Assembly: GCA_964348195.1 (NCBI GenBank)
Contig: CAYGBX010000001.1
Coordinates: forward strand, 15,148-79,147
Reading direction: 5' to 3'
DNA from: an uncultured Anaerolineales bacterium
Lineage (GTDB): Bacteria > Chloroflexota > Anaerolineae > UBA7937 > JACPPX01
DNA: 64,000 nt
This document shows positions 1,836 through 55,206 of this stretch, in pieces. Below the pieces are notes generated by a model that did not search any database, was not told the DNA's origin, and was given only the letters and a program-made list of their open reading frames with translations. The position numbers and the translations under genes were made by a program. How positions within the stretch are numbered: position 1 is the stretch's first letter; each line of letters opens with the position of its first letter.

Positions 1836-1838
1836 CGC

Positions 1839-2300
1839 CTATCCCTCCGCGATGCGGGTGATTTGCGAAGGCCGGGGCCAAGGAAGCCTTTCGGCTATCG
1901 CCTCGGCCTCCCGCGCGATCTGAGCGTCCAGCTCCTGCCAGAGGAGCGGTTCCCAGATCTCGATGCGGTCGCCGATCCCCACCAGGACGGCCTCGTCTGC
2001 TATGCGTGCATAGGAGAGGAGGGTCTCAGGAACGAGAAGCCCGCCCTCCGGATCCAATCTTCCCACTGAGGCCGCGGCGTGGAGATGCCTCGCCAGATCC
2101 CTCGCTCCCCGCCGCTCGAGTTGCAGCGCCCCGCTGAGGATCGCCGCCCAGGCCTCCCAGCCGGTTCGAGGCTGGAGCCACAAGCAGCGGTCAATGCCCT
2201 TGCCCAGGACCCAGCCCGGGGCCAGCTCGGGCCACCAGGCTCCAGGCACCTGGAGGCGTCCCTTCCGGTCCAACGGCACCGAGTGGCTTCCCAGCAACAT
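1839..2300 (-). CDS. mraZ: Transcriptional regulator MraZ
   Basis: 153 aa; two MraZ half-repeats: LDRKGRLQVP and VGIGDRIEIWEP (cf. E. coli NLDSKGRLSVP / VGQFNKFELWD). The start overlaps the stop of the upstream gene (TGATG). Confidence 0.8.
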   Translation of the reverse strand: MLLGSHSVPLDRKGRLQVPGAWWPELAPGWVLGKGIDRCLWLQPRTGWEAWAAILSGALQLERRGARDLARHLHAAASVGRLDPEGGLLVPETLLSYARIADEAVLVGIGDRIEIWEPLLWQELDAQIAREAEAIAERLPWPRPSQITRIAEG

Positions 2301-2875
2301 CAGTTTCCGTCCGTCTCGCCCGGATCGTGTCCGGCCTCGGGCTTCATATCCTGTGTCAGGTAGTGGATACGGATCTCCCGCAGCTCCGACTTCAACAGGT
2401 CCAGGCTGTGCTCGGTCTGGGAGATGAGCGTGCTGGCATCTCTCTGGGCCGATCGGATCAGCTCCTGGGCGCGCGCCTCCCCCTGCTGGACTATGGCCTT
2501 CGACCGAATCTCAGCCATCTCGACCAGTCGGCTGTCCTCCACCAGCGCCTCGGCCTGCCGACTCGCTTCGGAGGCGATGCTCCGGGCCTCGCTCCGCGCT
2601 CCAGCGAGGATCTCGTCCCGTTCCTGAAGGACCTTCCTGGCACGTACCACGGCCCCCGGCAGAGAGCCCCTTAGCCGGCCGATCAGGCGAAGACCGGCTT
2701 GGCGGTTCACCCAGGCTCCACCCATCCGCGGCAGCGTTCGGCCGGCGGCCAGGATTGCCTCCAGCCGATCCAGATACTCGATCGGGTCGGACCCTGACGG
2801 CGGACCGTCGTCCCGCGGCTCGGCGGCCGTGATAGCGGCGATCTTCTCCCTAAGCTCCATCAGCTCTCCTCCCAA
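2300..2875 (-). CDS. Hypothetical coiled-coil protein (E/R/A-rich; ATP-synthase-b / DivIVA-like low-complexity helix)
   Basis: 191-aa ORF with a strong coiled-coil-like composition (ARSEARSIASEASRQAEALVEDSRLVEMAEIRSKAIVQQGEARAQELIRS). Translationally coupled to mraZ. No specific family recognised. Confidence 0.5.
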   Translation of the reverse strand: MGGELMELREKIAAITAAEPRDDGPPSGSDPIEYLDRLEAILAAGRTLPRMGGAWVNRQAGLRLIGRLRGSLPGAVVRARKVLQERDEILAGARSEARSIASEASRQAEALVEDSRLVEMAEIRSKAIVQQGEARAQELIRSAQRDASTLISQTEHSLDLLKSELREIRIHYLTQDMKPEAGHDPGETDGN

Positions 2876-4221
2876 CTCGAGAACTTGCGGCCTTGCCTCA
2901 CCATGCGGTCCAAGATTCGTCGCGTGGACTCCGCGTCGTCCCCTGCGATCCGTTCCACCCGGCAGCCCCGCGCCACGAGCTCCTCCTCTGTGTCGGCGCT
3001 CACGCCTCTCTCATCCCCGATGATCGTGACGTGTCGGGCCAGTCCCGCCTCATCCGGCCGGAAGCCGCAGGCGGGCTGGAAGGTCCGTATGTATTCGGTT
3101 GCCATTCGCCAGTACCAATCTGAGACCCCGAAGTCCCAGGTCGGGAACAGGACGTAGTGCTGGATGGATCCGTTCGACGAAGCGGGCAGGCTCGAAGTCT
3201 CCTGCGGTTGGCGGGCGGCAGGCACAACCTCCGGCAATGGCCTTGGCGCCGGTGGACGCTGGATCGGCTGTGGAGCCGGCTCCGGGTCCGGCGTGCTGGC
3301 AGGTGGGTCGGAGGGAACCTGGGCCTGCTTCGCCAACATGCGGATCGCCGGCACAGGCGTGCCGTCTTCAGCTTCGAGAGGGCCCAGGTTGACGCACAGC
3401 AGGTATCGCGGCAGCGATCCACGTCTCGCCAGGAGCGCCGCCTCCGCCGCTCTCTGCATCGGCCCCCCCGCCGGCGGATAGCTCGCCACCGCCACCACAG
3501 GAAGCGAACGGCCAAGCCGCTCCTGAATGATCTCGTCGTACCATGCGAAGATCCGAAATCCCCGGTGGTCTTCGCTTTCCGCAGGGGTGTGGTACGGGCG
3601 CGCCAGCGGCCAGCGGCTCGGCCCGCCCGCCCCCCAACTCAGGTCCCGGTCGAGAGAAGTCACCGTAGCGACCCCGATCGACGCCAGGAGGGCGGGGTCT
3701 TCCTCCACCAGGATGTCCAGAGCTTCGGCTAGGAACGCTGTGTCCCAGTAGTCGCCTCCCGGCTGCATCGGTGGCAGGAGCGGGATCAGTCCCGCCTCCA
3801 CCGCCCGCGCAAGCGAAGGGCGAAGGATCCCCACAAACCGGCGCACCAGTTCCGGCTCGCTCCACTGAGCCCGCTCCCACGCTCGGGCCAGGTTCGGATA
3901 CCGGTAGAGGTACAGGTACCGACCCCCGGCCTCGGCGTAGGCAGAGAGCGCCGTTCGCAGAGCCTTCTGATCGATTCCGGAGACGGGCGTGCGATCCATC
4001 CCCAGAACAGGCTCGATACCCTGCGTCGACAGCGCCGCCACCAGGTCAAAGGGGATCGAGTGGTCCAGCGAGGCTTCCACTGTCACCCATCCGATCCCGG
4101 CCTCGGCCCAGTCTCGGGTGCGGTCCTCGAACCGACCGTCGCTGCCCGCCAGATCTCCGGCCTTCACAAGGAAGCCGATGCGACTTTCGGTTCTAGGTAG
4201 GGGGAAGGATCTCATCTCCAT
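2860..4221 (-). CDS. Hypothetical protein, two domains joined by a Pro-rich linker
   Basis: 453 aa. N-terminal ~300 aa is a globular domain of unknown function. Linker PSDPPASTPDPEPAPQPIQRPPAPRPLP. C-terminal ~110 aa is HYVLFPTWDFGVSDWYWRMATEYIRTF...TIIGDERGVS...RGCRVERIAGD. The start lies 9 nt after the stop of the caspase-like gene. Confidence 0.55.
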   Translation of the reverse strand: MEMRSFPLPRTESRIGFLVKAGDLAGSDGRFEDRTRDWAEAGIGWVTVEASLDHSIPFDLVAALSTQGIEPVLGMDRTPVSGIDQKALRTALSAYAEAGGRYLYLYRYPNLARAWERAQWSEPELVRRFVGILRPSLARAVEAGLIPLLPPMQPGGDYWDTAFLAEALDILVEEDPALLASIGVATVTSLDRDLSWGAGGPSRWPLARPYHTPAESEDHRGFRIFAWYDEIIQERLGRSLPVVAVASYPPAGGPMQRAAEAALLARRGSLPRYLLCVNLGPLEAEDGTPVPAIRMLAKQAQVPSDPPASTPDPEPAPQPIQRPPAPRPLPEVVPAARQPQETSSLPASSNGSIQHYVLFPTWDFGVSDWYWRMATEYIRTFQPACGFRPDEAGLARHVTIIGDERGVSADTEEELVARGCRVERIAGDDAESTRRILDRMVRQGRKFSSWEES

Positions 4222-4230
4222 CGCTTGCCT

Positions 4231-6534
4231 CTACCTCGACACCACCAGCTTCCCGATCCGACCGTCCCCGTCCGAGGTCAGGACGGCTCGATGGCGCAGG
4301 CTTCTCCTCCGAGGGTCCACTTCCAGCGGAGTGCGATGCTCAGCGCTGGCCACCCAGCGCTCCGTAGGCGGACTGCTGTCAGCGGCCGATCCCGTGCGGA
4401 CTGGGCATATGGGACAATCGCCACAGCCACAGGCCGAAACTTTCTTCACGGACGCCTTCGCGGACGCGAGAGCCGGGACTTGGCCGCTGAGGTACGACTG
4501 CAGGGTCCGCCGGATTGACGTAGGTGCCTCTGCCTCCTCCGACGAACCCCCGTGGCCGCATATCACGGCCGGACACTGCACTGGGTCGCTGTCCCCCATT
4601 CCGCGACGTCGGATCCGGTGCGTTGCAGACAATCCCAGGCTGGGATCTCCGTACAGGACGAACGTGAGGAGAGTCTTCTGGTCCTCCGCATCCAGGTATC
4701 CCTGCTCGGCACCGGCCTGCTCGATCAGGCCCAGCTTGGCCCGACGCAACGCCTCGCCGAGGGCGAAACCTTCCCGCAGACCCAGGAACAGGTTCACGGC
4801 GAGGAGGTCCGCGCCCACCAGTGGCGGGGCCAACGAGCCGTAGGCCATTCCGGTGGATCCGATGAAGCCACGGGCTCCGGCCGCCAGAAACGCCAGCGCC
4901 ACAGAATCCTGGATCCCTCGGTCTGCGATCTCGGCTCCGTAGCATGCCTCGCTGAAGACCACCGCCTCCGTCGGATCGGCCCAACTCAGGTTCAGAGGCG
5001 TCAGCGCGATGGGAAAGACGGGAGCGTCCTCCTCATCGCTCGAGCCGTGTCCGTACCAATAGGGGCTCCCCGCCACCCCGTGCAGGTTGAAGTAGGCGAG
5101 CGCGGGAATCCGATCGTATGCCTCGAGGAACTCCTGGTCCGAGAAGGGCGGGGACACCTCAAGTCCCCGGCCGTCGCCAAGGGCCTGCATCACGGCTGAG
5201 GAGGCATCCCGCCAGACTCCCGCCGAGACCGCAAGCGGCTGGGAGCCGTTTCCAGAGAAGAGCCGGCCCAGCCTCCCGCCGCGGCGTCGGCGCTTCCGGT
5301 GGGCGGTGGCGGTGCGAACGATGAATTCGGTCAGAGCCTCCGAGGAACCCAGGTCGGGGATCCGTCCCACGGCACGATCGGGAAGCAGGTAGTTCCCCGT
5401 CCGCGAAGCGTAGGGAGCGTCGGTGAAGACCTCCTCGTCCCCATCGTCTGAGGGATTGGGGATTCTGAAGAAGGGCACGATCCCGTCGCCACCCACCAGG
5501 AGGAGATAGTCGGCGCGCTGGCCGGTCTCCCCCAGCCGGACCTCCAGGTCTGCCAGCAGCTTGGCAATCGAGGCAGGATCCTCCGGATCGGCCACGGACA
5601 GGCCGAGCTCGCCCAGCGACTGAGGATCGTCCACCAGGACCAGGTGGGCGTCGATGCCAGAGCCTCTACGAGCGGCAGCGGCCAGGGCCGAGAGCCCCTC
5701 GGTGATCGCCATCCGCCCTTCCTCGCCGAACGCCGCCCCGAGCCGCGCGCGGCTCGACACGATCGCCAGGCTCGAGCTCAGCTCCCCGCCGCCAGCCCCG
5801 TTGCCCAAGGGGGAGATTTCGGGCTCCGCGATCTCGGGCAGGATCGGCAGATCTGGATGCTCCTCCACTGGCACTGAGGCCGGTTCGGGCGAGGGAACGC
5901 GCTCCGCCGGTTCAGGCTCCACTGCCCCGGCCGCACCATCACGGTCCCCACCCTGGACGGCCGGCTCGACCTCTTCCGCAGGACTCACGGTGGGAGCGGT
6001 CGCCAGGTACTCGGGGTACAGCCCCTCCGCAACGAAGAGCGAACGGGCGACCTCCATGCTGGGATCCAGCTCCCGAGCCGCGTGGAACCGCTTCGCTCCC
6101 TCGATCCAATCACCGGCTCGCAACTTGAGGTCTCCCAGCATCAGTTGGACCCGAACCAGGTTGGGGTGTGAGGCAGCGAGCGAGGCCAACACCGGCTCCA
6201 CCTCGGTCCCCCGCCCCTCCCGCCAGGCGACCTCGGCCTGGGCCAGTCCCTCGGGCACCGACATCGAGCCCCCGGATCCCTCCACGAGCCTCTGGAGCGC
6301 CTCCACGGCCTTGGGGTTCGTCGGATCCGTCGCCACAACGGCCTGATAGTGTCTGGTTGCCTCCGCCCCGCGGCCGGACTCCTCCAGGATCCGCCCCAGG
6401 GCCAAGCGAGCCGCCTGATGCCGGGGAAACCGACGTATCAGCGCCACGAGAAGTGGCTCCGCGGCTTCCGGCTGTCCCTGCTCGTGCCGCCGCAGGGCCC
6501 GCTCCACGATGCCTCCCGTCTCCACGGCGCGCAT
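4231..6534 (-). CDS. TPR-repeat protein with C-terminal caspase-like (clan CD, CHAT-type) cysteine peptidase domain and Cys-rich tail
   Basis: 767 aa. N-terminal TPRs (ALIRRFPRHQAARLALGRILEESGRGAEATRHYQAVVATDPTNPKAVEAL...). Protease core LLLVGGDGIVPF...YFNLHGVAGSPYWYGHG (catalytic His) then ~45 aa on VVFSEACYGAEI (caspase QACRG-like Cys pentapeptide). C-terminal CPAVICGHGG...CGCGDCPICP zinc-ribbon-like. The start ATG directly abuts the stop of the STAND gene (TAGATG). Confidence 0.8.
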   Translation of the reverse strand: MRAVETGGIVERALRRHEQGQPEAAEPLLVALIRRFPRHQAARLALGRILEESGRGAEATRHYQAVVATDPTNPKAVEALQRLVEGSGGSMSVPEGLAQAEVAWREGRGTEVEPVLASLAASHPNLVRVQLMLGDLKLRAGDWIEGAKRFHAARELDPSMEVARSLFVAEGLYPEYLATAPTVSPAEEVEPAVQGGDRDGAAGAVEPEPAERVPSPEPASVPVEEHPDLPILPEIAEPEISPLGNGAGGGELSSSLAIVSSRARLGAAFGEEGRMAITEGLSALAAAARRGSGIDAHLVLVDDPQSLGELGLSVADPEDPASIAKLLADLEVRLGETGQRADYLLLVGGDGIVPFFRIPNPSDDGDEEVFTDAPYASRTGNYLLPDRAVGRIPDLGSSEALTEFIVRTATAHRKRRRRGGRLGRLFSGNGSQPLAVSAGVWRDASSAVMQALGDGRGLEVSPPFSDQEFLEAYDRIPALAYFNLHGVAGSPYWYGHGSSDEEDAPVFPIALTPLNLSWADPTEAVVFSEACYGAEIADRGIQDSVALAFLAAGARGFIGSTGMAYGSLAPPLVGADLLAVNLFLGLREGFALGEALRRAKLGLIEQAGAEQGYLDAEDQKTLLTFVLYGDPSLGLSATHRIRRRGMGDSDPVQCPAVICGHGGSSEEAEAPTSIRRTLQSYLSGQVPALASAKASVKKVSACGCGDCPICPVRTGSAADSSPPTERWVASAEHRTPLEVDPRRRSLRHRAVLTSDGDGRIGKLVVSR

Positions 6535-9500
6535 CTAGCTTCCCCCGCCGTGGACCCAGGCCAGCGCAGTCGTGGCGGCCAGCTGCTTGAAGGCATTTGC
6601 GTTCTTGGGATCGAGCCGCACTGCTTCGCGGAACATCTCGGCGGATTCGGAGTACTGCTTGAGCCGCTTGTAGAGGAGGCCAGCCCGGAAGTGATGGTCG
6701 GCCTCGCCGGGCTCGGTCTGACAGGCCAGCAGGAACTCTCGGAGGGCCCGGTCGTAGTTGCCTTGCTCCTCATGGGTCCTGCCCAGCTCGCTATGCGCCT
6801 GACCGCTGGCAGGGTCGAGCTCCGCCATCTTCCGGAAGTGAGCGACCGCCTTGTCCGTGTGGCCCAGCCTCCGGCACAGTGCGCCCACCTCGCTGTGGTA
6901 GGCCTTCTCCTCGGGAGCGGCACGCAGCGCCTTGTGGTAGGCCTCCAAGGCATCGTCGAAGCGATCCTGATCCAGATAGGTGCGCGCTCTCGAGATGTAG
7001 GCCGGCGCGTACTGGGGATCGCGCGAGGTGGCCTCGTCCAGGGCCTCAAGTGCGGCGTGGTAGTCGCCCTGTCGATGAAGGACCTCGGCTACCCGATGGG
7101 GATACGCCGGATCCTGGGGCTCCAGGTCGCTCGCTCGCTGGTAGTGCGCCAGGGCCTGTTCCAGGTCGCCCCGCTTCTCTTGGAGGTGGCCTAGGTGGGC
7201 GTACGAGGCCGCCTTGGCCCCGCCGAGTGAGAGCGCCTCCTCGAAGCATGCGATCGCTTCCTCGAACCGCCCCATCCCTTCCAGGGCGACGCCGAGCCCG
7301 AGCCACAGCGTCGGGTCCTGAGGCTGCGTCTCCAAAGCTCGGCGGTAGGCATCCGCCGAATCGGAATTCCGTCCCACCTCTTGGTAGGCCGCACCGAGGG
7401 CGGATCGGGCCCGTAGGTCGTTCGGGTCGAGGCGCACTGCCTCCTCCAGGTGCTCGACCGCCTTGTCCCAGCGCCGCATGTGAGACAGCGCGCTGGCAGC
7501 GGCCCTGTGAAACTCGGCTGCTCGGGGAGCCAGCTCGACCGCCTTCCGGTACTGCTCGAAGGCGGACTGATGCCGCCCGGCCCGCTCGTACAGACCGCCG
7601 AGCACCGCCCGCCATCGTGCGACGCCTGGACCGGCCGCCACAGCGCGCTCCATCGCCTCCATCGCTTCTTCGTGGTCCCCGGCGGACTCCAGCGTACCGG
7701 ACAGGGCGTGCAGGTAGCGGCCGTCGTGGTCGGATCGATCCACGGCAGCACGAAAGGCGGACAACGCGCGATCATGCTCTCCCAGAGCCTCGTGGATCCG
7801 GCCGAGCTGGTAGTGGGTCTCGGCCTCGTCTGGCGCCAGGCTGTGAGCGGCCTCCAGCTCGCGCCGGGCGTCCTCGTACCGCCCCAGCTGTCGATACACC
7901 GAGCCAAGGGCGCGCCGTCGCTCTGGTGACCCAGGCTCCAGATCCACGGACTTCTGGCAGAGCCTTTCTGCTTTGTCTCCGTCTCCCTGGGCAGCGTTCA
8001 GAAGACCCAGCTCAGAGTAGGCCTCCGCCCAATTCGGCTTGAGGTCCAATGCCGCCTGGAGCGAACCCGCGGCCTTGGCGTACCAGTGGTCAGATGCGCC
8101 ATTCTCTGACGCCTTCCCAAGGGCTCGCTCCACGGCGCCCAACCGCAAGACATAGGTGGGATCGTGCGGCGCGAGCCGACTGGCCTCGTCGTAGAGACGC
8201 TGGGCATCCTCTAGTCGACCCGCTCCCTCGTAGGCCTGGCCGAGCCGGAAGGTCGCTCGCGGATCGGTCCCCTCCTCCGTAGCGAGGGGCTCGAGAACAT
8301 GGACCGCCTCCAGGGCGCGTCCGCTCGCCAGGAGGGCCCCACCCAATGCCTCGCGGATCTGTGCATCGTGGGGGATCAGATCCAGCGCCCGCTGGTAGAA
8401 GCCCAAGGCCTGCTCAACCTGGCCCGCCTTCTCGCGCGCCCGACCCAGAAGGTAGAGAGCCTCCGGGTCCGCCGAGTCCATCTCCAGGGCACGTTCGAGG
8501 GCCACGGTCGCTTCCTCCGCGTGCTCCCGCTCCAAGAGGAGCGCGCCCAGATCGCGGTGGTGGATGGCGTCCTTGCCGTCGCAAGCCACGGCCTCCTCAA
8601 ATTGGGTGCGTGCGGCGTCCCAGCGACCCGCCTCCCGGTAGAGTTGGCCCAGCCGATGGTGCAGCGGGGCGCTGCCGGGCAGGTTGGCGATCGCGCGCTC
8701 CAGGACCGTGGCGGCCTGGGCTTCTCGACCTAGCTGGCGCTCCAGGGCAGAGAGAGCCAGATGCGGTTCGGCAGATCGCGGCTGAAGTGAGGCCGCCTTT
8801 CGATAGCTGGACCGTGCTTCCTCCAGCTTTCCCATCGCCTCCTGCAACCTGCCGAGACCCAGCAGAGCCTCCACAGGCTCACTGTCAAGGGCCACAGCCG
8901 TGGCTAGTGCTTCCTCAGCTTCCTCTCGGCGGCCCAAAGCGCTGAGAAGGTTTCCGCGGGCTAGGTGGACCGTGGACTCCTCGGGAGCGATGCGCTCGGC
9001 CTTGGCCACCTCGTCGAGAGCCGCGGCAAGGTCGCCCCGCTCCTCCAGGATCCGCGCCAGGTTCAGGTGAGCCTGTGGATCGTCCGAGTCCGTGCTGCGG
9101 GCTCGCTCCAACGAGGCCTCCGCCTCGTCCACGCGACCCATCTGGTCCAGAACTCGGCTCATTCGACCCAGGTGACTGGGGTCCAGGAAGAGCGACTCCC
9201 CTGCCCCCTGGTAGGCCTCCAAGGCCTCGGGGTGCCACCCGTTGCTCTCGAACCCCTCTCCCAGGGTCTCTCGGAGTGCGGGATCGTGCGGATTCAGCGC
9301 CACCGCCTCCTCAAGTGCGGCCACGGCTTCTTCCCCGCGGCCGAGATCCAGAAGAGTCCGTCCCATCCACTGGAGATAGCGGGGCTCATCCGGCGCCTGC
9401 GCGATTGCCCGTCGGCCGGCGGAAAGCGCCTCTTCCATGCGGTCGGCCGCCTGGTACAGGTTGGCGAGTTCGAACTGGAGCTCCGCGCCGCCCTGCTTCC

Positions 9501-12500
9501 GCCCCACCGCCTCCTCCAACGCAGAAAGCGCTTCGTCGAGATCTCCCTGGGCGCGACACACTCGGGCATACCCGCGATGGTGCCTCGTGTCAGCGGGATC
9601 CAGGGACATCGCTTGCCGGTACCGCTCGCGGGCCTGCTCTGTCTCTCCCTGCTCCTCGAAGGCCTGGCCCAGCAGATGTTGGGCCTCGGCGTCCGAGGGA
9701 TCGGTGGCGAGTGCGCATTCCAATGCCTCCCTGGCCTCGTCCGTTTGACCGGCCCGGAGCAGAACGCGTCCCTTGCGCCGGAGATGTCCCGGCTCCTCCG
9801 GCTCCACGCGGATCGCCTCCTCGTACTCGCGCAGCGACTCCTCCAACCGACCCTCTGCCTCCAGGATCTCTCCGATCCGGGCGTGGATGGCGGCCGATCC
9901 ACCATTCCCCGCCCCGAGAGCCCTGCGCAGGGCTTCCAGGGCCTTTGTCGCATCGCCCATCTTTTGGAGCAGGGATCCCGCGGCCAGAGGAAGCTCGCCG
10001 TCGTCCGGCGCCAGCTCTATGGCACGCTGATACGCCTCCAGGGCCTCGCCGTACTCCTCTCGGCCCTCGGCGACCGCGCCCCAGAGTCGCAGAGTGAGGG
10101 CGTCGGTGGGGTCGAGCGTCAGTGTCCGCTCCAACGCGGCGCGAGCTTCGTTGAGCCGTCCCATCTGCAGGCTGACCGCTGCCAACCCCCGCTGATGAGC
10201 CGGATCCTCAGGAGCGAGACGAATGGCGCGCCGGTAGCTCCCTAGCGCCGCGTCCAGTCTTCCATCCGCCTTCTGGATCTCGCCCAGAAGTGCGTGTCCC
10301 GTCGCCAGGTCCTTCCCCAGGGAGATTGCTTCGCGAGCCGCGGCCTCCGCCTCCTCCAGACGCGACATTCGCAAGAGCAGCCTTGACAGAGCCAGCCGGT
10401 GCACAGCAGCCTCTGGATCCAGCTCGATCGCGTGACGCAGGGCCCTCAAAGCGCGCGAGCCCTCCCCCTGAGAGGCGTAGGCGATTCCCAGCTCGCGCTG
10501 GATCTCCCCCCGCTCCGGAGCGAGCCGAGCGGCTTCCTCAAGCTCTGCCGTGGCCGCGTCTCCGCGACCGAGCTCCTGAAGTCCGGCCGCCAGATGGGCG
10601 CGTATCTCCGCATTGCCCGGGTCCATGTCCCGGGCCTTCAGATAGGCTTCGACCGCCTCCTCAAGGTCGCCTCTCGCCGCGTGAATCCTCGCGTGCTCGT
10701 GGTGGACGGATGCCAGGCCTGGGCCCAGATCCAGGGCACTGGAGATGGTGGACAGCGCTTCGTCCAGCCGCTTCAGGCCACGCAGCGCCTCCGCTTCCAG
10801 CACCAGGAAGCCTGGCTCCCCGGGAGCCATCTCGCGGCCGCGACGACACCAGCCCAACGCCTCGTCAAAGCGATTGAGCACGAGATGGACCCGGGCCAGT
10901 CCCGCAAGCGGTGCCGGTCCCAAAGGATCCTGCGCGTGCGCCTGCTCCAGGGCGGCCAACGCCTCGCTGCCGCGGCCAGCCACGATCAGCGCCATTCCCA
11001 AGTGGAGATGCCCGTGGGCGTTCTCCGGCTCCAGGCGGCTCGCCTCTCGATAGGACTCTACAGCCTGGGAGGATCGGCCTTGGGCGGCGAAAACCGCTCC
11101 CTGGACGCGGTGGGCCTCAGCGAATTGCGGGGCTCCCTCCACGGCGCGCTCGGCGAACCGAGCCGCCTCATCGAGCTCCCCCTGCTCAGACAAGACCCGG
11201 GCCAAGCCAACTTGATACAGGGGCTCGTCGGGATCCTGGCCGGCGGCCTGCTCATAGGCGCCCTTCGCCTCCTCCAGCCAACCCTGGCCTTCGTAGGCCC
11301 GAGCCAGTTCGTTGAGCACCGAAGGGTCGGAGTCGTCTTGAGATCGGGCCCTCTCGAGGAACTCCCGTGCCTCTTCGAACCGGCCCATCTCGTTGAGCAC
11401 CCGACCCACACTCGCAAGGTAACGAGCTTCCTCTGCCTGCAGGGCCGCGGCGCGGCGGAAGGCCTGGAGCGCCTCGGCCATTCGCCCTTCCGCCTCGTAG
11501 GCAAGCCCAAGCTGATGGTGGGTGTCCACGTAGGCTGTGCCAGCCGCGGCCACGGCTCCTTCCAGCTCCTCCACGGCCTGGGCGTGCTGATCCATCTGCT
11601 GCAGAACCAGCCCGCGGTTGCGCCGCCGGAAGAGCTCTTCGGTGCGAACCCCGGATGGATCCTTCTCCCAGGAGCCCAGATCGAGGGACCCTTCCTCCAG
11701 GCTTCTCTCCAGTAGAATCGCGGCCGCCCGATGGCAACCCTCCTGCTTGAGAAGCCTCCCCAGCCGATAGGCGGTGGCCCCATCCACGGCGGGGCCGGAG
11801 GCGGAGAGAAGGTCGGTGACCTTGCCCACCTGGCCCTCGGGCGGCTCGTTGTCGGCAATGCTGCGGGCAGCGAGCCGGAGGGAGGCCTCGTCTCCCTTGA
11901 CGAGCAGGGCTTGAAGGTAGGCCAGAGGATCCGGAGCGAAGGCGTAGCCTTGGACGACGGCGCCCTCGGCCATGGGTTCCCTGCTGAGGGCGGCGACTCG
12001 CTCCCAGCCACCGCTTCTTCCCAGGGCCTGTCCCGCGAAGTGCTCTAGCACGAGCGGATCCAGAAACGCCACCGCCCCTCGCCCGCGCCGGACCAGAAGG
12101 CCAGTCGCCAGAATCCGCTCCAGGAGAGCACCAGCACCTCGGCCGTCCGCGGAAACCTCTTCGAAGCGCTCGAGCCAGGCCTCCCGTGGCGCGTGGTTGC
12201 GGCCCTCCGCGAGCAGGCCAACGGCAGCCGTCTCCAGCGCCGCGTCAGCCCCCTCTGGCATCTCCTGCACCAATCGCTCGACAGCGGTGGAGATCACGTC
12301 GCCCGGCCTCCACCAGCGGCGAACAGCGTCCGATTCCCGCGCCAGCTCGACCAGCGCCGACAGGAAGAGGGGGGAATGGACCAAGTTCCAGAGGTCTGGC
12401 CGCCGGCGCAGCCGCTCCTCAACCTCCTGTGCCAGAGGCCGCTCCAGCCGCTGCGCAAGGTAGCGGCGAACGTCGTCGTCGGAGAGGGGCAGGATCTCCC

Positions 12501-13071
12501 AGGTGGAGATCTCGCCCAGCCAGCGCCGATATATAGAGAAGTCCGCGCTTCGGCAGGCTACCACCGCACGCTGATCTCGGAGGGTGGTACCGACCAACCG
12601 TTCGATCTCCTCCAGAGCATAGTGGCTGGTGATGCGATCCAGGTTGTCGAGCAGCAGGGTCACGTAGCCCCGTCCGAGGAGGGAGCTGAGAGCCGAACGC
12701 TCCATGTCGGGATCGCCCAGAGAGGCGGCGATTCGCTCGCGGATGCCATCCCCTTCCTCCATGGGCGCCAGGTCCACCAGCAGAGGCACGGGACGATCCC
12801 GCTCTCCCGGCATGGCGTCCTCCGCCAAGACGGTCACCAAGTGTTCCAAGAAGACCGTCTTGCCTGCCCCCGGTCCGCCGAGCACCACGGCTCGGCCCGC
12901 ATCCAGGATCGCCCGGGTGGCGTCCGGGGCGGGACTGTCCGCGAGGGGTCGCGTCAGCCGAGGTGGGATGTAGGGGCCGCCAGCACCTCCGGAGCGCTCC
13001 TGCACCCCGGCCAGATGCCGGCGCAGGACCGCCAGGCCCGAAGGGGCGGCCCCTTCATTGCGTTCCGCCAT
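6535..13071 (-). CDS. STAND-class NTPase (NACHT/AAA-like) fused to a ~1800-aa TPR array
   Basis: 2178 aa. Walker A VVLGGPGAGKTVFLEHL, Walker B VTLLLDNLD, sensor-1-like VVACRSADF, then winged-helix-like region. From about residue 400 to the C-terminus there are uninterrupted TPRs (dozens of A-x-x-x-Y/F...A-L-x-L-x-P units). SD GGGGAGG 4 nt upstream of the ATG. No N-terminal effector domain. Confidence 0.85.
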   Translation of the reverse strand: MAERNEGAAPSGLAVLRRHLAGVQERSGGAGGPYIPPRLTRPLADSPAPDATRAILDAGRAVVLGGPGAGKTVFLEHLVTVLAEDAMPGERDRPVPLLVDLAPMEEGDGIRERIAASLGDPDMERSALSSLLGRGYVTLLLDNLDRITSHYALEEIERLVGTTLRDQRAVVACRSADFSIYRRWLGEISTWEILPLSDDDVRRYLAQRLERPLAQEVEERLRRRPDLWNLVHSPLFLSALVELARESDAVRRWWRPGDVISTAVERLVQEMPEGADAALETAAVGLLAEGRNHAPREAWLERFEEVSADGRGAGALLERILATGLLVRRGRGAVAFLDPLVLEHFAGQALGRSGGWERVAALSREPMAEGAVVQGYAFAPDPLAYLQALLVKGDEASLRLAARSIADNEPPEGQVGKVTDLLSASGPAVDGATAYRLGRLLKQEGCHRAAAILLERSLEEGSLDLGSWEKDPSGVRTEELFRRRNRGLVLQQMDQHAQAVEELEGAVAAAGTAYVDTHHQLGLAYEAEGRMAEALQAFRRAAALQAEEARYLASVGRVLNEMGRFEEAREFLERARSQDDSDPSVLNELARAYEGQGWLEEAKGAYEQAAGQDPDEPLYQVGLARVLSEQGELDEAARFAERAVEGAPQFAEAHRVQGAVFAAQGRSSQAVESYREASRLEPENAHGHLHLGMALIVAGRGSEALAALEQAHAQDPLGPAPLAGLARVHLVLNRFDEALGWCRRGREMAPGEPGFLVLEAEALRGLKRLDEALSTISSALDLGPGLASVHHEHARIHAARGDLEEAVEAYLKARDMDPGNAEIRAHLAAGLQELGRGDAATAELEEAARLAPERGEIQRELGIAYASQGEGSRALRALRHAIELDPEAAVHRLALSRLLLRMSRLEEAEAAAREAISLGKDLATGHALLGEIQKADGRLDAALGSYRRAIRLAPEDPAHQRGLAAVSLQMGRLNEARAALERTLTLDPTDALTLRLWGAVAEGREEYGEALEAYQRAIELAPDDGELPLAAGSLLQKMGDATKALEALRRALGAGNGGSAAIHARIGEILEAEGRLEESLREYEEAIRVEPEEPGHLRRKGRVLLRAGQTDEAREALECALATDPSDAEAQHLLGQAFEEQGETEQARERYRQAMSLDPADTRHHRGYARVCRAQGDLDEALSALEEAVGRKQGGAELQFELANLYQAADRMEEALSAGRRAIAQAPDEPRYLQWMGRTLLDLGRGEEAVAALEEAVALNPHDPALRETLGEGFESNGWHPEALEAYQGAGESLFLDPSHLGRMSRVLDQMGRVDEAEASLERARSTDSDDPQAHLNLARILEERGDLAAALDEVAKAERIAPEESTVHLARGNLLSALGRREEAEEALATAVALDSEPVEALLGLGRLQEAMGKLEEARSSYRKAASLQPRSAEPHLALSALERQLGREAQAATVLERAIANLPGSAPLHHRLGQLYREAGRWDAARTQFEEAVACDGKDAIHHRDLGALLLEREHAEEATVALERALEMDSADPEALYLLGRAREKAGQVEQALGFYQRALDLIPHDAQIREALGGALLASGRALEAVHVLEPLATEEGTDPRATFRLGQAYEGAGRLEDAQRLYDEASRLAPHDPTYVLRLGAVERALGKASENGASDHWYAKAAGSLQAALDLKPNWAEAYSELGLLNAAQGDGDKAERLCQKSVDLEPGSPERRRALGSVYRQLGRYEDARRELEAAHSLAPDEAETHYQLGRIHEALGEHDRALSAFRAAVDRSDHDGRYLHALSGTLESAGDHEEAMEAMERAVAAGPGVARWRAVLGGLYERAGRHQSAFEQYRKAVELAPRAAEFHRAAASALSHMRRWDKAVEHLEEAVRLDPNDLRARSALGAAYQEVGRNSDSADAYRRALETQPQDPTLWLGLGVALEGMGRFEEAIACFEEALSLGGAKAASYAHLGHLQEKRGDLEQALAHYQRASDLEPQDPAYPHRVAEVLHRQGDYHAALEALDEATSRDPQYAPAYISRARTYLDQDRFDDALEAYHKALRAAPEEKAYHSEVGALCRRLGHTDKAVAHFRKMAELDPASGQAHSELGRTHEEQGNYDRALREFLLACQTEPGEADHHFRAGLLYKRLKQYSESAEMFREAVRLDPKNANAFKQLAATTALAWVHGGGS

Positions 13072-13081
13072 GGGCCCTCCC

Positions 13082-13426
13082 CTAGAGCCCCGTGGTGAGC
13101 CAGAAGGCGACTATGCTGATGGTGACACCCGCGACCGTGAGGAAGGCACCGATACCGGCAGCGGTACGGATCAGCCGGTTGATGGCTTCCACCAGGTTGG
13201 AAGCGGAGTCGATGATTGGCGCCACGGCATCCTGCGTGACGGCCCGGCCACTGATCTTTATGGACTGAGCCGAGAGGTGCTTCATGGCGCTGTGGTACTC
13301 CTTGGACAGGATGATCCACAGACCGGAGACGGTGCAGACCACCCCGATCAGGAACAGGATCACCGCCATCCCGACCTCGAGGTCAGCGGCTGGCATTGGG
13401 ACCTCCTTTCGCGATCCGCACGGCAC
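13082..13426 (-). CDS. Small membrane protein (2 predicted TM helices), unknown function
   Basis: 114-aa ORF. Hydrophobic MAVILFLIGVVCTVSGLWIIL and GIGAFLTVAGVTISIVAFWLTTGL flank a ~60-aa soluble segment. The ORF-track start overlaps the receiver gene by 44 nt. The true start is probably internal (Met at 13396 or GTG/ATG near 13370). Confidence 0.5.
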   Translation of the reverse strand: MPCGSRKEVPMPAADLEVGMAVILFLIGVVCTVSGLWIILSKEYHSAMKHLSAQSIKISGRAVTQDAVAPIIDSASNLVEAINRLIRTAAGIGAFLTVAGVTISIVAFWLTTGL

Positions 13427-13811
13427 GGCGGACCAGCTGCTTCATCTCCTCCATCTCGAAGGGCTTGCTGACATAGGCAGAGACTCCGACGCGTTCCGCC
13501 TCCGCCTCCACATCGCTGCATCCATAGGCGGTCATGAGAATGGCCTGGGTTCTGGTCTGGAGCCCTCGGGCGGCGCGCAGCAATTGGATCCCGCTCAGGC
13601 CAGGCATCCTCAGGTCGGCGATGATCACGTCCGGCTGCCTCTCAGCTACCGCCTCCAGCGCGTCCTCGCCTGAATGGCGAACCTCAACCTCGTACCCCGG
13701 CTCCTCCTCCAGCGCGCTGCGCAGGAAGTGGGCCAGGGTTCGCTCGTCCTCAGCGATGAGGATTCGGGAGGTTCGTGCGTCTACCCTTTTCTGCGTGATC
13801 GCGGTCGCCAC
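13383..13811 (-). CDS. Single-domain response regulator (CheY-like receiver)
   Basis: 142 aa. RILIAEDE, phospho-acceptor IIADLRMPG, LMTAYG, SKPF. GTG start with GAGG SD 8 nt upstream. First gene downstream of the sigma-54 promoters. Confidence 0.8.
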   Translation of the reverse strand: MATAITQKRVDARTSRILIAEDERTLAHFLRSALEEEPGYEVEVRHSGEDALEAVAERQPDVIIADLRMPGLSGIQLLRAARGLQTRTQAILMTAYGCSDVEAEAERVGVSAYVSKPFEMEEMKQLVRRAVRIAKGGPNASR

Positions 13812-13836: not shown

Positions 13837-13852
13837 GCAAGATCCGTGCCAG
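13837..13852 (-). promoter_or_regulatory. Sigma-54 (RpoN) -24/-12 promoter, proximal copy (P2), transcribing toward 13811
   Basis: Minus-strand reading of 13837-13852 = CTGGCACGGATCTTGC. TGGCACG-N4-TTGC matches consensus spacing and bases exactly. -12 C at ~13837, predicted TSS ~13825, 14 nt before the GTG start. Confidence 0.6.
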
Positions 13853-13896: not shown

Positions 13897-13912
13897 GCAA
13901 GATCCGTGCCTG
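13897..13912 (-). promoter_or_regulatory. Sigma-54 -24/-12 promoter, distal copy (P1)
   Basis: Minus-strand reading = CAGGCACGGATCTTGCT. Identical 14-nt core GGCACGGATCTTGC exactly 60 bp upstream of P2, -12 TTGCT. Confidence 0.55.
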
Positions 13913-14000: not shown

Positions 14001-14035
14001 ACTGGGGGGACTTCCCCAACTGGGGGAAATCCCCC
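14001..14035. promoter_or_regulatory. Candidate enhancer (UAS) for the adjacent sigma-54 activator: two adjacent imperfect dyads
   Basis: ACTGGGGGGACTTCCCC (14001-14017) and ACTGGGGGAAATCCCCC (14019-14035). Both are TGGGGG-N2-3-CCCCCA dyads, 18 bp centre to centre, ~100-130 bp upstream of the sigma-54 -24 elements and ~150 bp from the end of the bEBP gene. Confidence 0.35.
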
Positions 14036-14187: not shown

Positions 14188-15561
14188 CTACTTCAGGCCG
14201 TACTTCGAAAGGGAGTAGCGGAGGACGTCGCGGGTGACGCCCAGGAGGCGGGCAGCCTCGCTCTGGTTTCCGCCGGTCCGCTCCAGCGCCTGGGCGATCA
14301 TCCGCCTTTCGAACTCGGCGACCGTCCCCTTCAGATCGATGCCCGCATCGTCGAGGGTCGCCTCAAGCGACGGGGCCAGAGGCAAGAAGGCCCTGTCGGT
14401 AACGATCTCTCCGGGCAGGTGAGCCGGCTGAATCTCATCGCCGTCGCAGAGGATGACCGCGCGCTCCATCACGTTTCTCAGCTCTCGGACGTTGCCGGGC
14501 CAGTCGTACCTGCGAAGGAGCTCCATCGCCTCCTCTGAGACCCCGGTCACGTTCTTTCCCATGGCCTCTGCGTACTCGGCCAGGAAAGTCAAGACCATAG
14601 GGTCGACATCGCCCGGTCGGTCGCGAAGCGGCGGCACCTCGATCACGACCACCCCAAGCCGGTAGTAGAGATCCTCGCGAAACTCCCCCGAATCCATGGC
14701 GGCTCTCAGGTCCCGGTTGCTGGCGGAAACGACCCGGATGTCCACCTGGATGTCACGCTCGCCCCCTACCCGACGGAAGGACTCGGTCTCCAGCACCCGG
14801 AGCAGCTTGGCCTGCAGATCCGGCCTCATACTCCCGATCTCGTCCAGAAACAGTGTCCCGCCGTCGGCCGTCTCCAGCAGCCCTTTCTTCTGTCGCTTGG
14901 CGTCGGTGAAGGCGCCGCGTTCGTGGCCGAACAGCTCGCTCTCAAGGAGGGTGTCCGGGATCGCCGCGCAGTTGATGGCCACAAAGGGACCATCGGCGCG
15001 GTCGCTCTGACGATAGAGGGCGCGGGCGATGACCTCCTTGCCCGTGCCGCTTTCCCCCTGGATCAGCACGCTGGCCTTGCTGGCCGCAAGCCGCGCCACG
15101 AGCCTCTCTATCTCTCGCATAGCCGGGCTGTCACCGATGACCCAGGGACGATCCCCATCGCCCCGGCCCCGCAGCCGGGCAAGCTCTTCGCGCAGGGCAC
15201 GCGACTCCAGGGCGCGCGCGATCGTCAGCTTGAGATCATCAAGATCGGGGGGCTTCTCAAGATAGTCATAGACCTTGAGCCGCATGGCCTCCACGGCGCT
15301 GCCAACCGATCCGTACCCTGTCATCATGATCACCGGCAATTCGGCATCGCCGGCACGGATGGCCCGGAGCACCTCCATCCCCTCCACATCGGGCAGCTTG
15401 AGGTCGAGGAGGACCAGGTCGATCTCGCGCTGTCCTACGGCCTCCAATCCCTCCCGGCCCGTCCCCGCCGCGACTACCTCGTAGCCCTCCTCGAGGAGGG
15501 ACTCCCTGAGGAAATGGCTGAGGGTGGACTCGTCCTCGACGATCAGGATGGTGCGACTCAC
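14188..15561 (-). CDS. Sigma-54-dependent transcriptional activator (NtrC/Fis family bEBP: REC + AAA+ sigma-54 interaction + Fis HTH)
   Basis: 457 aa. Receiver ILIVEDE...LVLLDLKLPDVEG. AAA+ VLIQGESGTGKE, GAFTDA (GAFTGA variant), ELFGHERGAFTDA, VRELRN. C-terminal Fis-type HTH QSEAARLLGVTRDVLRYSL. Confidence 0.9.
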   Translation of the reverse strand: MSRTILIVEDESTLSHFLRESLLEEGYEVVAAGTGREGLEAVGQREIDLVLLDLKLPDVEGMEVLRAIRAGDAELPVIMMTGYGSVGSAVEAMRLKVYDYLEKPPDLDDLKLTIARALESRALREELARLRGRGDGDRPWVIGDSPAMREIERLVARLAASKASVLIQGESGTGKEVIARALYRQSDRADGPFVAINCAAIPDTLLESELFGHERGAFTDAKRQKKGLLETADGGTLFLDEIGSMRPDLQAKLLRVLETESFRRVGGERDIQVDIRVVSASNRDLRAAMDSGEFREDLYYRLGVVVIEVPPLRDRPGDVDPMVLTFLAEYAEAMGKNVTGVSEEAMELLRRYDWPGNVRELRNVMERAVILCDGDEIQPAHLPGEIVTDRAFLPLAPSLEATLDDAGIDLKGTVAEFERRMIAQALERTGGNQSEAARLLGVTRDVLRYSLSKYGLK

Positions 15562-15567
15562 CTTACC

Positions 15568-17625
15568 CTACCCTCCCAGTGGGATTCGGACGACGAATGC
15601 CGTGGCCCCCATTGGGTCACTCTCGGCCTGGATTTCGCCTCCATGGGCTTCGATGATCCTGCGGGCCACCGCCAGGCCCAGAGGGGCTCCCGCCTCCACC
15701 GAGAATCCCGATTCACTGCCATCGGAGGAGCCAGAGGCCGCCCCGGCAGCCTGGTCCCGTCGAATCTCGATCTCGGCGTACCCGTCCCCGTCGGCAGGGT
15801 CGCTCACGGCCGAAGCAGTGATCGATCCCGATCCAGACTGGCCAGCGATGAGAGCAAGAAGAAGGTGGCGAAAGGCCCGCTGGAGCGCATCGGGGTCGCC
15901 CTGGACTGCCTTGAGGTCACGGCCCAGGTGTGTCTCGATCCCCGAGCCGCGGGCCTCGGCCTGCGAGCGACAGGCCTCGACGGCTGCGTGGAGGGTCTGC
16001 CCGAGGTCGGTGGGCACCGGCTGCAACCTCACCGGGCGCGACAAGAGGAGGAGCTCGTCGATCACCCGCTTCACCCGCAGGCTCTCCTGGAGGATCATCT
16101 GCAGCCCTTCGTGGCCCTCATCATCGGGATCGCTCTGCCCCGCGAGGTGCTGGATCCCGGTTACGATGCCAGCCAGGGGGTTCCGGATCTCGTGAGCCAC
16201 GGTCGCCGAGATCGCTTCCAAGGCCGAGCCGTAGCCCGCGCGCTCCCGAACACGCTCCAGTCTGGCCTCCTCTTCCAGGTCGTGGAGCACGACCACTGAT
16301 CCGGATCCAAACTCTGCATCCCAGAGGTGAAGGGACACCCTCAGCCGCCTGTCTCCTATCTCGAGTTCCTCCCACCACGGCGCCCAGCGCGCGGCTCCGT
16401 CATCCGGGGCGCCAAGGGTCTCCGACCCCAGCAGCGCGGCCAGCGAACGGCCGACGAGGCGGGAGGGGTTCCCCAGAAACCGCTCCGCCCTCCGGCTGGC
16501 CACGACGACCCGTCCTTCTCCGTCGAGCACCAACGCGGCAAGGGGCAATGAGCGCCAGGCCTCCTGCCGCAACCGACCCCGCACCTCCAGTCTCCGGCTC
16601 GCCCGCCGACGCGCCTCGCTCTTGTACCGGGTGAGGCCGGCCCCCAGCCGGCGGCCGAAGCCAACCAACTCCTCGAGGTGGCCGGGGGTGAGCGCCTGGG
16701 CCGGGTGGCCCACCACCAGCAGCACCCCGAGGAGTTGGCCGTTGCCTGAGACGGGTATCAGCGCGCCGGTTCCCACTCCGGGAGCTTTCGAGACCACGCT
16801 CCAGTACCAGGGATCCGCCGAATCCTCCTCCAGCAGGATCGGCCCGGCCTCCTCCCGGAGCCGCTCCACCAGGCCGTAGCCGGAATGAAGCCGGCGGCTC
16901 GCCCGCTCCTCGAAGGAGGCCGAGGGGAACAAGCGATGGTCGACAAGCCGGTACTCATCGCGGGCGGCATCGAGCAGGAACACGGCCGCGCGGCCGACTG
17001 GAGGAAGGTCCAGCGCCGCCTGCAACCCCGCTGCCACAGCTTCCTCCGTGCTATCTGCGGTGAGCAGGCGGAGGGTGAGGTTGTCGAGGCGAATCAGAGA
17101 CTCCCAGCGGCGCTGAGTGGCCCGTGCCTTCTGGGATTCGCGCCGTCCGCGGGACGCCGGGTCCAAGTCAGCGGAGATCTCAATCTCGGTCCCGGTTCCT
17201 TCCTGCTTGTCGGAGAGCTCCGGGCCATCGGGCGAACGGACGGTCCCGGACCAAGTCCTGCTCCCGGACGGCAGGGCACGGGAGACAGCGGCCCGAAGCA
17301 TCGAGGGATCGACCGGCTTCTCCAGGTAGTCGGCGGCGCCCAGCCTCATGGCCTTCACTGCATCTCCCACCGAGCCGGGACCGATCATCAGCACGCCGGG
17401 ACCATCCCTGCCTTCGGCGCGAATCGTCCGCAGCAGCTCAAGCCCATCGCCATCGGGCAGCTCCGTTTCGATGAGGACCAGGTCCACAGACTCGCGGGCC
17501 AGAGTTCCGAGTCCCTCCTGACCGGTGCGCGACCAGAGCACCTCGTACCCCTCCTCTTCCAGAGCCTGGCGGAGGAAGAAGCTTGTCGCTTCTTCCGCAT
17601 CGATGAGCAGAACCTGCTGGGCCAT
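15568..17625 (-). CDS. Hybrid sensor histidine kinase with N-terminal receiver (REC-GAF/PAS-HisKA-HATPase)
   Basis: 685 aa. N-terminal REC (LLIDAEE...LVLIETELPDGDG...YLEKP), central sensory region, H-box ATVAHEIRNPLAGI, C-terminal ATP-binding G-box. Stop is 6 nt before the bEBP start. Confidence 0.85.
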   Translation of the reverse strand: MAQQVLLIDAEEATSFFLRQALEEEGYEVLWSRTGQEGLGTLARESVDLVLIETELPDGDGLELLRTIRAEGRDGPGVLMIGPGSVGDAVKAMRLGAADYLEKPVDPSMLRAAVSRALPSGSRTWSGTVRSPDGPELSDKQEGTGTEIEISADLDPASRGRRESQKARATQRRWESLIRLDNLTLRLLTADSTEEAVAAGLQAALDLPPVGRAAVFLLDAARDEYRLVDHRLFPSASFEERASRRLHSGYGLVERLREEAGPILLEEDSADPWYWSVVSKAPGVGTGALIPVSGNGQLLGVLLVVGHPAQALTPGHLEELVGFGRRLGAGLTRYKSEARRRASRRLEVRGRLRQEAWRSLPLAALVLDGEGRVVVASRRAERFLGNPSRLVGRSLAALLGSETLGAPDDGAARWAPWWEELEIGDRRLRVSLHLWDAEFGSGSVVVLHDLEEEARLERVRERAGYGSALEAISATVAHEIRNPLAGIVTGIQHLAGQSDPDDEGHEGLQMILQESLRVKRVIDELLLLSRPVRLQPVPTDLGQTLHAAVEACRSQAEARGSGIETHLGRDLKAVQGDPDALQRAFRHLLLALIAGQSGSGSITASAVSDPADGDGYAEIEIRRDQAAGAASGSSDGSESGFSVEAGAPLGLAVARRIIEAHGGEIQAESDPMGATAFVVRIPLGG

Positions 17626-17626
17626 C

Positions 17627-52925: not shown

Positions 52926-53088
52926 AGCCTGGAGATCGTCCGCCAGCCGCGCCCGAGCATCACGGGACATTCTTGACACCGGCTCCGGGCAGTCCGTATA
53001 ATTCGCCCACGCCGGGAGCCCTTCTGGAGGGAGTCTTCTACGGCTTGGGCGGAGCCCCTCTGCCCCTTCGACGCGAGACCGCTACCCC

Positions 53089-55134: not shown

Positions 55135-55206
55135 CACCGGGTTCAAGCCACATTCTTTGACGAGAAGATTCCCCGACGCCGGAAGACGATCGGATTCCCT
55201 CGGGCA

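Follow-up and report, generated by a model that had tools for sequence, protein, structure and literature searches.

The window analysed here is a 64,000-nucleotide stretch of an uncultured Anaerolineales bacterium of the class Anaerolineae, phylum Chloroflexota (GenBank assembly GCA_964348195.1, contig CAYGBX010000001.1, positions 15,148 to 79,147 of the forward strand). Coordinates without a locus label are those of the whole window, and the genes and regulatory elements described in it lie on the minus strand. The open reading frame (ORF) at 6535..13071 has an ATG start and encodes a protein of 2178 amino acids, referred to as the giant, whose translation gives a Pfam NACHT match and a massive tetratricopeptide repeat (TPR) signal. 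The giant is a NACHT-clade STAND (signal transduction ATPase with numerous domains) NTPase that has no effector and continues into an unbroken TPR array. The next gene encodes a peptidase of family C25, and a small gene for a putative two-transmembrane (2-TM) protein adjoins the giant on its other side. The reading put forward here, with belief and doubt evenly balanced, is that these proteins form a signal-induced scaffold and protease module that would act on division or septal wall remodelling and is encoded in a conserved Anaerolineae operon.

The NACHT-TPR giant and the C25 protease

The N-terminal module of the giant covers residues 1-480 (11632..13071) and is composed of a unique lead of ~33 amino acids followed by a NACHT core in the order nucleotide-binding domain (NBD), helical domain 1 (HD1), winged-helix domain (WHD), and helical domain 2 (HD2). 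In the translation, Walker A reads GGPGAGKT at residues 65-72 (12856..12879) and Walker B reads LLLDNLD at residues 139-145 (12637..12657). In A1, an alignment of 16 sequences made up of the giant's NACHT-bearing relatives, G68, G70, and K71 of Walker A are invariant, in agreement with the pattern GxxxxGK[ST]. D142 of Walker B is likewise invariant, and the hhhhD form plus a second acidic residue is present. Residues 1-520 alone match Pfam NACHT (PF05729) with an E-value of 5.9e-9 and 36.4 bits against a cut-off of 26.7 bits.

An AlphaFold (AF2) model of residues 1-480 built on a 16-sequence alignment has a predicted local distance difference test score (pLDDT) of 86.5 and a predicted template modelling score (pTM) of 0.85; the single-sequence model of the head, with a pLDDT of 46, was unusable. 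Compared with the PDB by Foldseek, the head model is closest to NLRC4 (E 2.6e-12), followed by NOD2, NLRP3, and NAIP5. Sequence searches of the PDB with the head and with the C25 protease returned nothing informative. An earlier note on this DNA had recognized a Walker A/B NTPase at the N-terminus; the motifs are located where it placed them, and the NACHT profile and the fold both match.

Ahead of the NTPase core, the head model contains one helix (residues 12-29) and a short strand only. The more distant NACHT proteins found with HMMER already align with the giant from query residue 34 onward, so the ~33 N-terminal residues are unique to the giant. Apart from NACHT, searches of Pfam, NCBIfam, and PADLOC gave no significant effector domain in residues 1-520, which bears out the earlier description of the protein as effector-less. 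The NCBIfam model EruA scores 21 bits against the head, with a cut-off of 1000. Among the PADLOC defence models, the head gave two non-significant matches and the remaining matches were generic TPR ones; the protease gave none.

A HMMER search of 1.84e9 cluster representatives with the head gave 1292 matches at E<=1e-3, and the closest relative is 36% identical. Among the matches is a family of the same layout: its proteins have NACHT at their very start, continue into a long TPR tail, and carry a conserved C-terminal motif, and one of them has 2272 amino acids. Sequence relatives outside this family (P0018 onward) have ~180 amino acids ahead of NACHT, a feature they share with effector-bearing bacterial NACHT proteins. 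No matches came from a word-indexed search with the head, and its profile version gave two proteins only. A scan of GTDB using the head alone found nothing; A1 is too divergent for search patterns.

The giant shares Walker A/B, the Pfam NACHT match, the NBD-HD1-WHD-HD2 fold, and C-terminal repeats with NACHT-clade NTPases, e.g., NLRC4, NOD2, NLRP3, and bNACHT. Unlike the animal NOD-like receptors (NLRs), it has no N-terminal effector or adaptor, and it has 49 TPRs where NLRs have leucine-rich repeats. It also differs from NACHT-clade NTPases in lying in a conserved sigma-54 operon beside division genes and in having orthologues that lost the P-loop. By analogy with these proteins, NTP hydrolysis and nucleotide-dependent oligomerisation would be expected of any giant with an intact NACHT head, the window protein included.

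The TPR array spans residues 480-2157 (6601..11634) and is made up of 49 units of 34 amino acids, detected with an iterated hidden Markov model (HMM), autocorrelation, and the Pfam families TPR_1/2/8/11/16/19. The HMM was iterated on the giant's own repeats and keeps a strict 34-residue register. Interruptions are limited to two 1-residue insertions and one 10-residue insertion, and an additional degenerate unit lies at residue 431. The Pfam matches reach E-values of 6.7e-181 for TPR_2 and 6.3e-152 for TPR_1, and the autocorrelation of the protein far exceeds that of shuffled controls. A continuous array of ~50 repeats spanning ~1800 amino acids had been reported earlier; the continuity and the repeat number hold, and the length comes down to ~1680 amino acids. 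The array had also been called one of the longest; the giant's own length is ordinary within its family, where orthologues reach 2263-2386 amino acids and the NACHT-headed giants of related loci range from 1942 to 2386.

Autocorrelation along the array is higher at 68 and 136 residues than at 34, and is strongest at 68, the length of two TPRs. This suggests a two-TPR super-repeat, derived from ancient pairwise duplication or from alternating unit types.

A 102-bp periodicity of the array DNA had been proposed to promote recombination and length variation. The periodicity is present but weak, with 39-42% identity at lags of 102, 204, and 408 nt against 31% at other in-frame lags. Tandem Repeats Finder (TRF) detected no tandem repeats in the array DNA, where direct repeats are at best ~41 nt long and 66-73% identical. 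Exact internal repeats reach 17 nt at most; four equally long control stretches gave maxima of 12, 13, 15, and 37 nt, the first three of them similar to the array. The array DNA offers no obvious substrate for homologous recombination. The 37-nt control value is an exact direct repeat within window positions 52001-58537.

Related loci and contigs are labelled L001, L002, and so on. The giant aligns nearly without gaps to its orthologues in L002, L004, and L006 over the full length, with 25-54% identity per 102-residue block; the C-terminal block is best conserved, at 48-64%. Its C-terminal 85 residues are 63-64% identical to those of L002 and L004, and the NACHT head is 36-38% identical. The last TPR unit, the C-terminal tail with KQLAATTALAW, and the stop codon occupy 6535..6702, the best-conserved part of the giant. 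For ~30 of 47 TPR units, the positional orthologue in L004 is the best match, where ~1 in 49 would be expected by chance. Orthologous units also outscore the best paralogue within the same protein (74.7 vs 60.0). The near-gapless alignment and the repeat-by-repeat orthology show an old, stable array in which every single repeat is under constraint. The proposed recombination and length variation are contradicted by these alignments, by the lack of TRF repeats, and by the 17-nt limit on exact repeats.

The C25 protein (4231..6534) has 767 amino acids, and its start abuts the giant's stop codon. Pfam and the translation divide it into TPRs (residues 13-82), a Peptidase_C25 domain of clan CD with the caspase fold (residues 293-634), and a Cys-rich tail. 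PF01364 matches with an E-value of 1.2e-13 and 51.5 bits against a cut-off of 23, and covers profile positions 24-373 of 374. The catalytic dyad is composed of His485 (NLHG, 5080-5082) and Cys531 (EACYG, 4942-4944), whose codons bound the stretch 4942..5082. Both residues are invariant in A3, a 16-sequence alignment whose members are 29-45% identical to the window protein. The enzyme is probably catalytically active, a prediction made from its sequence.

No 19-residue hydrophobic window was found near the N-terminus of the C25 protein, a scan run without a dedicated signal-peptide predictor, and the protein is for this reason probably cytoplasmic. At E<=0.01, Pfam gave only Peptidase_C25 and TPR families, and no CHAT domain. 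The PF01364 match and the His/Cys dyad are shared with the gingipains and PorU, from which the C25 protein differs in its probable cytoplasmic location, its N-terminal TPRs, and its Cys-rich C-terminal region. That region (residues ~650-767, 4231-4700) contains the motifs CPAVICGHG and CGCGDCPICP, and Cys659 and Cys702 are invariant across homologues. The tail may be a zinc-binding module.

Among 8000 candidates scored, 845 C25 homologues were found at E<=1e-5. Their source names are those of Chloroflexi, Anaerolineae, or Dehalococcoidia metagenome-assembled genomes (MAGs), and one homologue, from a MAG named 'Anaerolineae bacterium', is 85% identical. The called C25 ORF has ~565-625 amino acids in many loci and apparently lacks the N-terminal TPRs there.

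The sigma-54 operon

The small gene (13082..13396) that adjoins the giant encodes a protein of 104 amino acids with two hydrophobic segments in its hydropathy profile (residues 1-33 and 75-104). This is the most conserved gene of the operon, and its product aligns closely with the L002, L004, and L006 orthologues. Its Pfam match is limited to a weak one to DUF7139 (E 0.0011). Before it lies the first gene after the promoter, a receiver-only response regulator (13383..13811; Pfam Response_reg, E 2.7e-25), which is found in the closest subgroup of related loci.

A sigma-54 -24/-12 promoter, TGGCACGGATCTTGC, is predicted at 13837..13851 from an exact consensus. This is the single exact match to TGGCAC-N5-TTGC in the 64-kb window, where 0.08 would be expected by chance, and it lies 26 nt upstream of the first gene. 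The consensus recurs at the corresponding place upstream of the operon in L002, L004, L006, L007, L008, and many other loci. Upstream of the operon, the 14-nt element GGCACGGATCTTGC is present in two copies 60 nt apart (13837-13851 and 13897-13910). Its downstream copy is the exact sigma-54 consensus, and its upstream copy has AGGCAC instead of TGGCAC. The pair could be a tandem promoter or include a decoy site. Two G-run/C-run palindromes, GGGGGATTTCCCCC and GGGGAAGTCCCCCC, are read at 14004..14035, 166-184 nt upstream of the promoter. L007 has a closely similar pair, at -210/-190 relative to its sigma-54 motif. The palindromes are probably binding sites of an NtrC-type activator, an assignment that is putative.

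The regulatory genes lie in a row directly upstream of this single consensus. They are composed of an NtrC-type sigma-54 activator with receiver, AAA+, and HTH_8 domains (14188..15561; Pfam Sigma54_activat, E 4.8e-71), two sensor histidine kinases (HKs; 15568..20503), and rpoN, the gene of sigma-54 (20512..21990; Pfam Sigma54_CBD, Sigma54_DBD, and Sigma54_AID). In Pfam terms, the first kinase has the architecture RR-GAF-PAS-HK (RR, response regulator; 15568..17625) and the second SBP_bac_3-PAS-GAF-PAS-HK (17627..20503). The rpoN gene is adjacent in L007 too, and in these bacteria sigma-54 may serve mainly this operon. With a consensus element and an adjacent activator both present, the operon is predicted to be sigma-54-promoted.

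Downstream of C25 lies U453 (2860..4221), a conserved protein of 453 amino acids and no known family, with homologues in 53 loci. It is followed by a Scy/DivIVA-like coiled-coil protein of 191 amino acids (2300..2875), which has weak NCBIfam matches to DivIVA_Wag31 and Scy and whose L002 orthologue has a weak Pfam Scy match. Next are MraZ (1839..2300; Pfam MraZ, E 3.2e-16) and an exported cell-wall amidase with Pfam Amidase_2 and Big_7 domains (3..1838), a partial gene that runs off the window. In the closest orthologous loci (L002, L004, and L006), ftsZ comes after the amidase gene. From the receiver to the amidase, the genes overlap or are separated by <=10 nt throughout, and no terminator-like site was seen between them.

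Neither U453 nor the small protein could be assigned a function with Pfam, NCBIfam, or PADLOC. The N-terminal ~250-340 residues of U453 are shared with an ORF at the downstream end of related loci (L004 20651-22487, L009 20671-22478, and L010 20728-22364). In L004 this ORF is a SpoIID-domain protein encoded after ftsZ. The sharing hints at a role of U453 in cell-wall remodelling.

Conservation across the Anaerolineae and loss of the NTPase head

When GTDB was scanned with the C25 alignment, at least 577 species-representative genomes proved to encode a relative. All of the 80 best loci belong to Anaerolineae-type Chloroflexota, among them Anaerolineales, Thermoflexales, Ardenticatenales, and a complete Leptolinea genome. 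In L002, L004, L006, and L007, the synteny contigs found via the C25 protein, the gene order is like that of the window. It begins with a histidine kinase, the NtrC-type sigma-54 activator, the receiver, and a ~105-aa gene, and continues with a giant of 1942-2269 amino acids, C25, U453, the Scy-like protein, MraZ, Amidase_2, FtsZ, and LysM and SpoIID proteins. This is the usual order in Anaerolineae, and its variable members are the receiver, U453, the Scy-like protein, MraZ, and the amidase. No published account of this operon turned up in the literature searches.

Synteny was counted with an own script on the best GTDB-scan loci, and the denominators are the loci with enough flanking sequence. 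The giant ORF abuts the C25 start in 63 of 65 loci (enough upstream sequence), with a 4-nt stop/start overlap in 30, and the small gene adjoins the giant in 62 of 63. Of the 52 loci with enough downstream sequence, 39 carry a same-strand ftsZ no more than 7 kb downstream. Where the flank is long enough, most loci have a sigma-54 activator ahead of the operon, and in L004 and L006 a kinase related to the window's lies upstream of the activator. Because its adjacency is kept in 63 of 65 loci, C25 is regarded as a genuine partner of the giant. The earlier note held that the protease is supplied in trans by the next gene, whose product carries TPRs that could dock onto the array. The pairing is real, and the TPRs are there in the window protein; docking through them is not general, as many C25 ORFs appear to lack them.

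Taken together, the operon is apparently vertically inherited in the class Anaerolineae. That it is lineage-wide is held with much more confidence than any specific substrate of the protease. L001 (10001-16724), a distant low-GC member, has a 528-aa NACHT ORF, an overlapping 1729-aa TPR ORF, and no C25 neighbour; the split could be a frameshift, a sequencing error, or real. In L025, L026, L027, L041, and L062, a second ORF of at least 1200 amino acids lies downstream of C25, and in the first four it comes after ftsZ.

Adjacency to mraZ and ftsZ could also be nothing but inherited gene order, with the giant and C25 serving an unrelated cytoplasmic role, e.g., quality control or proteolysis of a metabolic regulator. 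The absence of ftsZ linkage from 13 of 52 loci and the other surroundings of the giant in L008 and L001 speak for this explanation, which is nonetheless judged quite improbable. Loci with as little as ~30-40% identity between their C25 proteins still share the linkage. In some lineages, C25 is directly followed by mraZ-ftsZ. In others, U453-ftsZ has a sigma-54 consensus of its own: L036 (11589), L046 (12120), and L059 (12103) have a second exact copy in the interval from the C25 stop to the U453 start. The giants of these three loci have no P-loop, and the U453-ftsZ unit may have its own sigma-54 promoter in them.

The P-loop is absent in 36 of 63 giants. In Thermoflexales-type loci (L030, L032, L035, and L037), the giant starts directly with TPRs and the whole NACHT head is gone. 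Anaerolineaceae-type loci (L036, L044, L057, L082, and L008) have lost the P-loop core and retain the helical remainder. In the first ~230 columns of their N-terminal alignment, only the post-P-loop part of NACHT matches (hhalign probability 96%, E 4e-9, against residues 193-462 of the window giant). Wherever the head or the P-loop is lost, the TPR array, the small 2-TM protein, and C25 are always kept. Many lineages can thus do without the NTPase core. The NACHT head had been considered as the essential core of the system, a candidate rejected after the NACHT-less orthologues were found. Walker A/B is intact in the window giant and is kept across the NACHT-bearing subgroup. Judged by their sequences, the orthologues form a natural degradation series for a STAND NTPase, from intact head to P-loop loss to loss of the whole head.

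Dispensability of the P-loop or whole head in 36 of 63 orthologues would suit a structural or processing module. Here the TPRs would be a passive scaffold, the NACHT head would be vestigial, and C25 would constitutively mature or trans-peptidate an envelope or division protein without any switch. PorU, a C25-family sortase, is a model for such constitutive processing. The same reading is favoured by the small membrane protein and the C-terminal TPRs being most conserved, and by the wall-remodelling neighbours, namely Amidase_2 and, in related loci, the SpoIID and LysM proteins. It remains improbable in view of the conserved Walker A/B motifs of this giant and its NACHT-bearing subgroup. Moreover, C25 is probably cytoplasmic, unlike PorU or the gingipains, and control by sensor kinase, activator, and sigma-54 argues for conditional expression.

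Proposed role of the module

In the proposed mechanism, an environmental or developmental signal would act through the kinases and the activator on sigma-54 transcription of the operon. Consensus TPR superhelices have ~8 repeats per turn and a pitch of ~7 nm. On this general TPR geometry, an array of ~49 TPRs would be a long superhelical scaffold of ~40 nm. The small 2-TM protein would tether the scaffold at the membrane, with its 50-aa basic loop facing the cytoplasm, and the scaffold would recruit the co-translated C25 protease. An intact NACHT head may allow nucleotide-dependent oligomerisation as in NLRC4/Apaf-1, which would cluster the arms and activate the protease by proximity. The protease would then cleave a division or septal cell-wall factor and couple signals to septation or filament length.

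HetF of Anabaena is the closest functional precedent. It is a membrane-anchored, TPR-associated CHAT caspase-fold protease, a component of the divisome, and degrades the division inhibitor PatU3 (PMC9457339, PMC8406250). The two systems share a caspase-fold protease, TPRs, a membrane element, and a filamentous host. A link to division is shown genetically for HetF (PMC9457339, PMC8406250) and is suggested only by gene order in the present system. HetF carries the anchor, the TPRs, and the protease on one polypeptide, whereas three proteins carry them here. The present protease also belongs to Pfam C25 with no CHAT match, and it is joined by a NACHT head with 49 TPRs.

Several points weigh against this role. 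Gene order (ftsZ <=7 kb away in 39 of 52 loci) is the sole ground for a functional link to division, and a nearby ftsZ is absent in 13 of the 52 loci with a full downstream flank. The loss of the P-loop implies that an NTP switch is not essential to the core function, which weakens the apoptosome-like activation step. In addition, earlier work read comparable STAND/caspase-like pairs of multicellular bacteria as systems of conflict or cell death (PMC7159879, PMC8195603).

The pairs in question are the neighbourhoods of STAND-TPR proteins and caspase-like peptidases that Kaur et al. (2020, 2021) described in multicellular bacteria, including Chloroflexi (PMC7159879, PMC8195603). A split arrangement such as the one seen here had thus been reported before and is not distinctive in itself, contrary to what the earlier note had supposed. 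In both systems, neighbouring genes of a filamentous, multicellular lineage encode a TPR-bearing NTPase and a caspase-fold peptidase. They differ in that the present peptidase is of Pfam C25 and not caspase or CHAT, and in that no effector-associated domain (EAD) or death-like adaptor was detected. The systems of Kaur et al. are described as variable, whereas the present one is fixed and syntenic.

On that precedent, the module could be a conflict or abortive-infection system that became fixed in a multicellular lineage. The TPRs would sense an invader, NACHT would oligomerise, and C25 would kill the cell, as in a split Avs or bNACHT system. This explanation draws on the fold of the NACHT module, which is closest to immune NLRs, and on the relatives beyond the family with ~180 residues before NACHT, like effector-bearing bacterial NACHT proteins. 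It also draws on the known conflict systems with STAND-TPR and caspase-like neighbours, Chloroflexi included, and on the protection that bacterial NACHT proteins give against phage. It is considered unlikely all the same. Neither the head nor the protease has a PADLOC match, and the ftsZ neighbourhood is kept across orders at 28-49% protease identity. The repeats are individually conserved with no sign of diversification, and over half the orthologues lack the ATPase core and yet retain the rest of the system. The dedicated two-component and sigma-54 control predicted for the operon is unlike that of a constitutively expressed sensor. A BLASTP comparison at E<0.2 of the giant's residues 1-60 and C-terminal tail, covering six operon proteins, found no adaptor/EAD- or amyloid-like motif common to the NTPase and its neighbours, and no relatives were found on viral contigs.

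Avs proteins share with the giant a STAND NTPase followed by a TPR-type C-terminal region. In contrast to them, the giant has neither a fused effector nor a PADLOC match, and its locus is syntenic across the class, with no defence-island or mobile context. Membership among the Avs/bNACHT defence receptors is not supported: a fused effector, a match to a defence model, and a patchy or mobile context were each looked for and not found. Nor is the antiviral, Avs-like framing of the earlier note supported, in view of the same absence of a PADLOC match and of viral-contig relatives, the frequent loss of the ATPase core, and the syntenic sigma-54 operon by mraZ/ftsZ.

A signal-induced scaffold and protease acting in division therefore stays the preferred reading, at the even balance given above. 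What is new is that an effector-less NACHT protein and 49 positionally conserved TPRs are combined with C25 and a small membrane protein as partners. Also new are the dedicated sigma-54 cascade, the linkage to the division cluster, and the graded loss of the NTPase head. A wider proposal is possible and offered tentatively, as one that falls short of probable. An NLR-type NTPase and a caspase-fold protease may have been domesticated as a class-wide sigma-54 developmental module for septation, filament fragmentation, or localised cell death. It would be a non-immune counterpart of NLR-caspase systems, and its ATPase switch would be disappearing from several lineages that keep the protease, the 50-TPR scaffold, and the scaffold's membrane partner.

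Bacterial NACHT/STAND proteins are read almost by default as antiviral receptors, and the giant sits in a conserved, signal-controlled operon instead. Even if the link to division proved false, the locus would show that an effector-less STAND protein with a neighbouring protease is insufficient for calling a defence system. If the division link holds, the series from intact to headless giants would let one ask what the NTPase adds to a TPR scaffold. The C25 protease would be a second, independent caspase-fold protease in the division machinery of a multicellular bacterium, after cyanobacterial HetF. Live imaging of cell division in filamentous Anaerolineae has only just begun, and a true division link would give a concrete handle on the control of septation and filament length in Chloroflexota.

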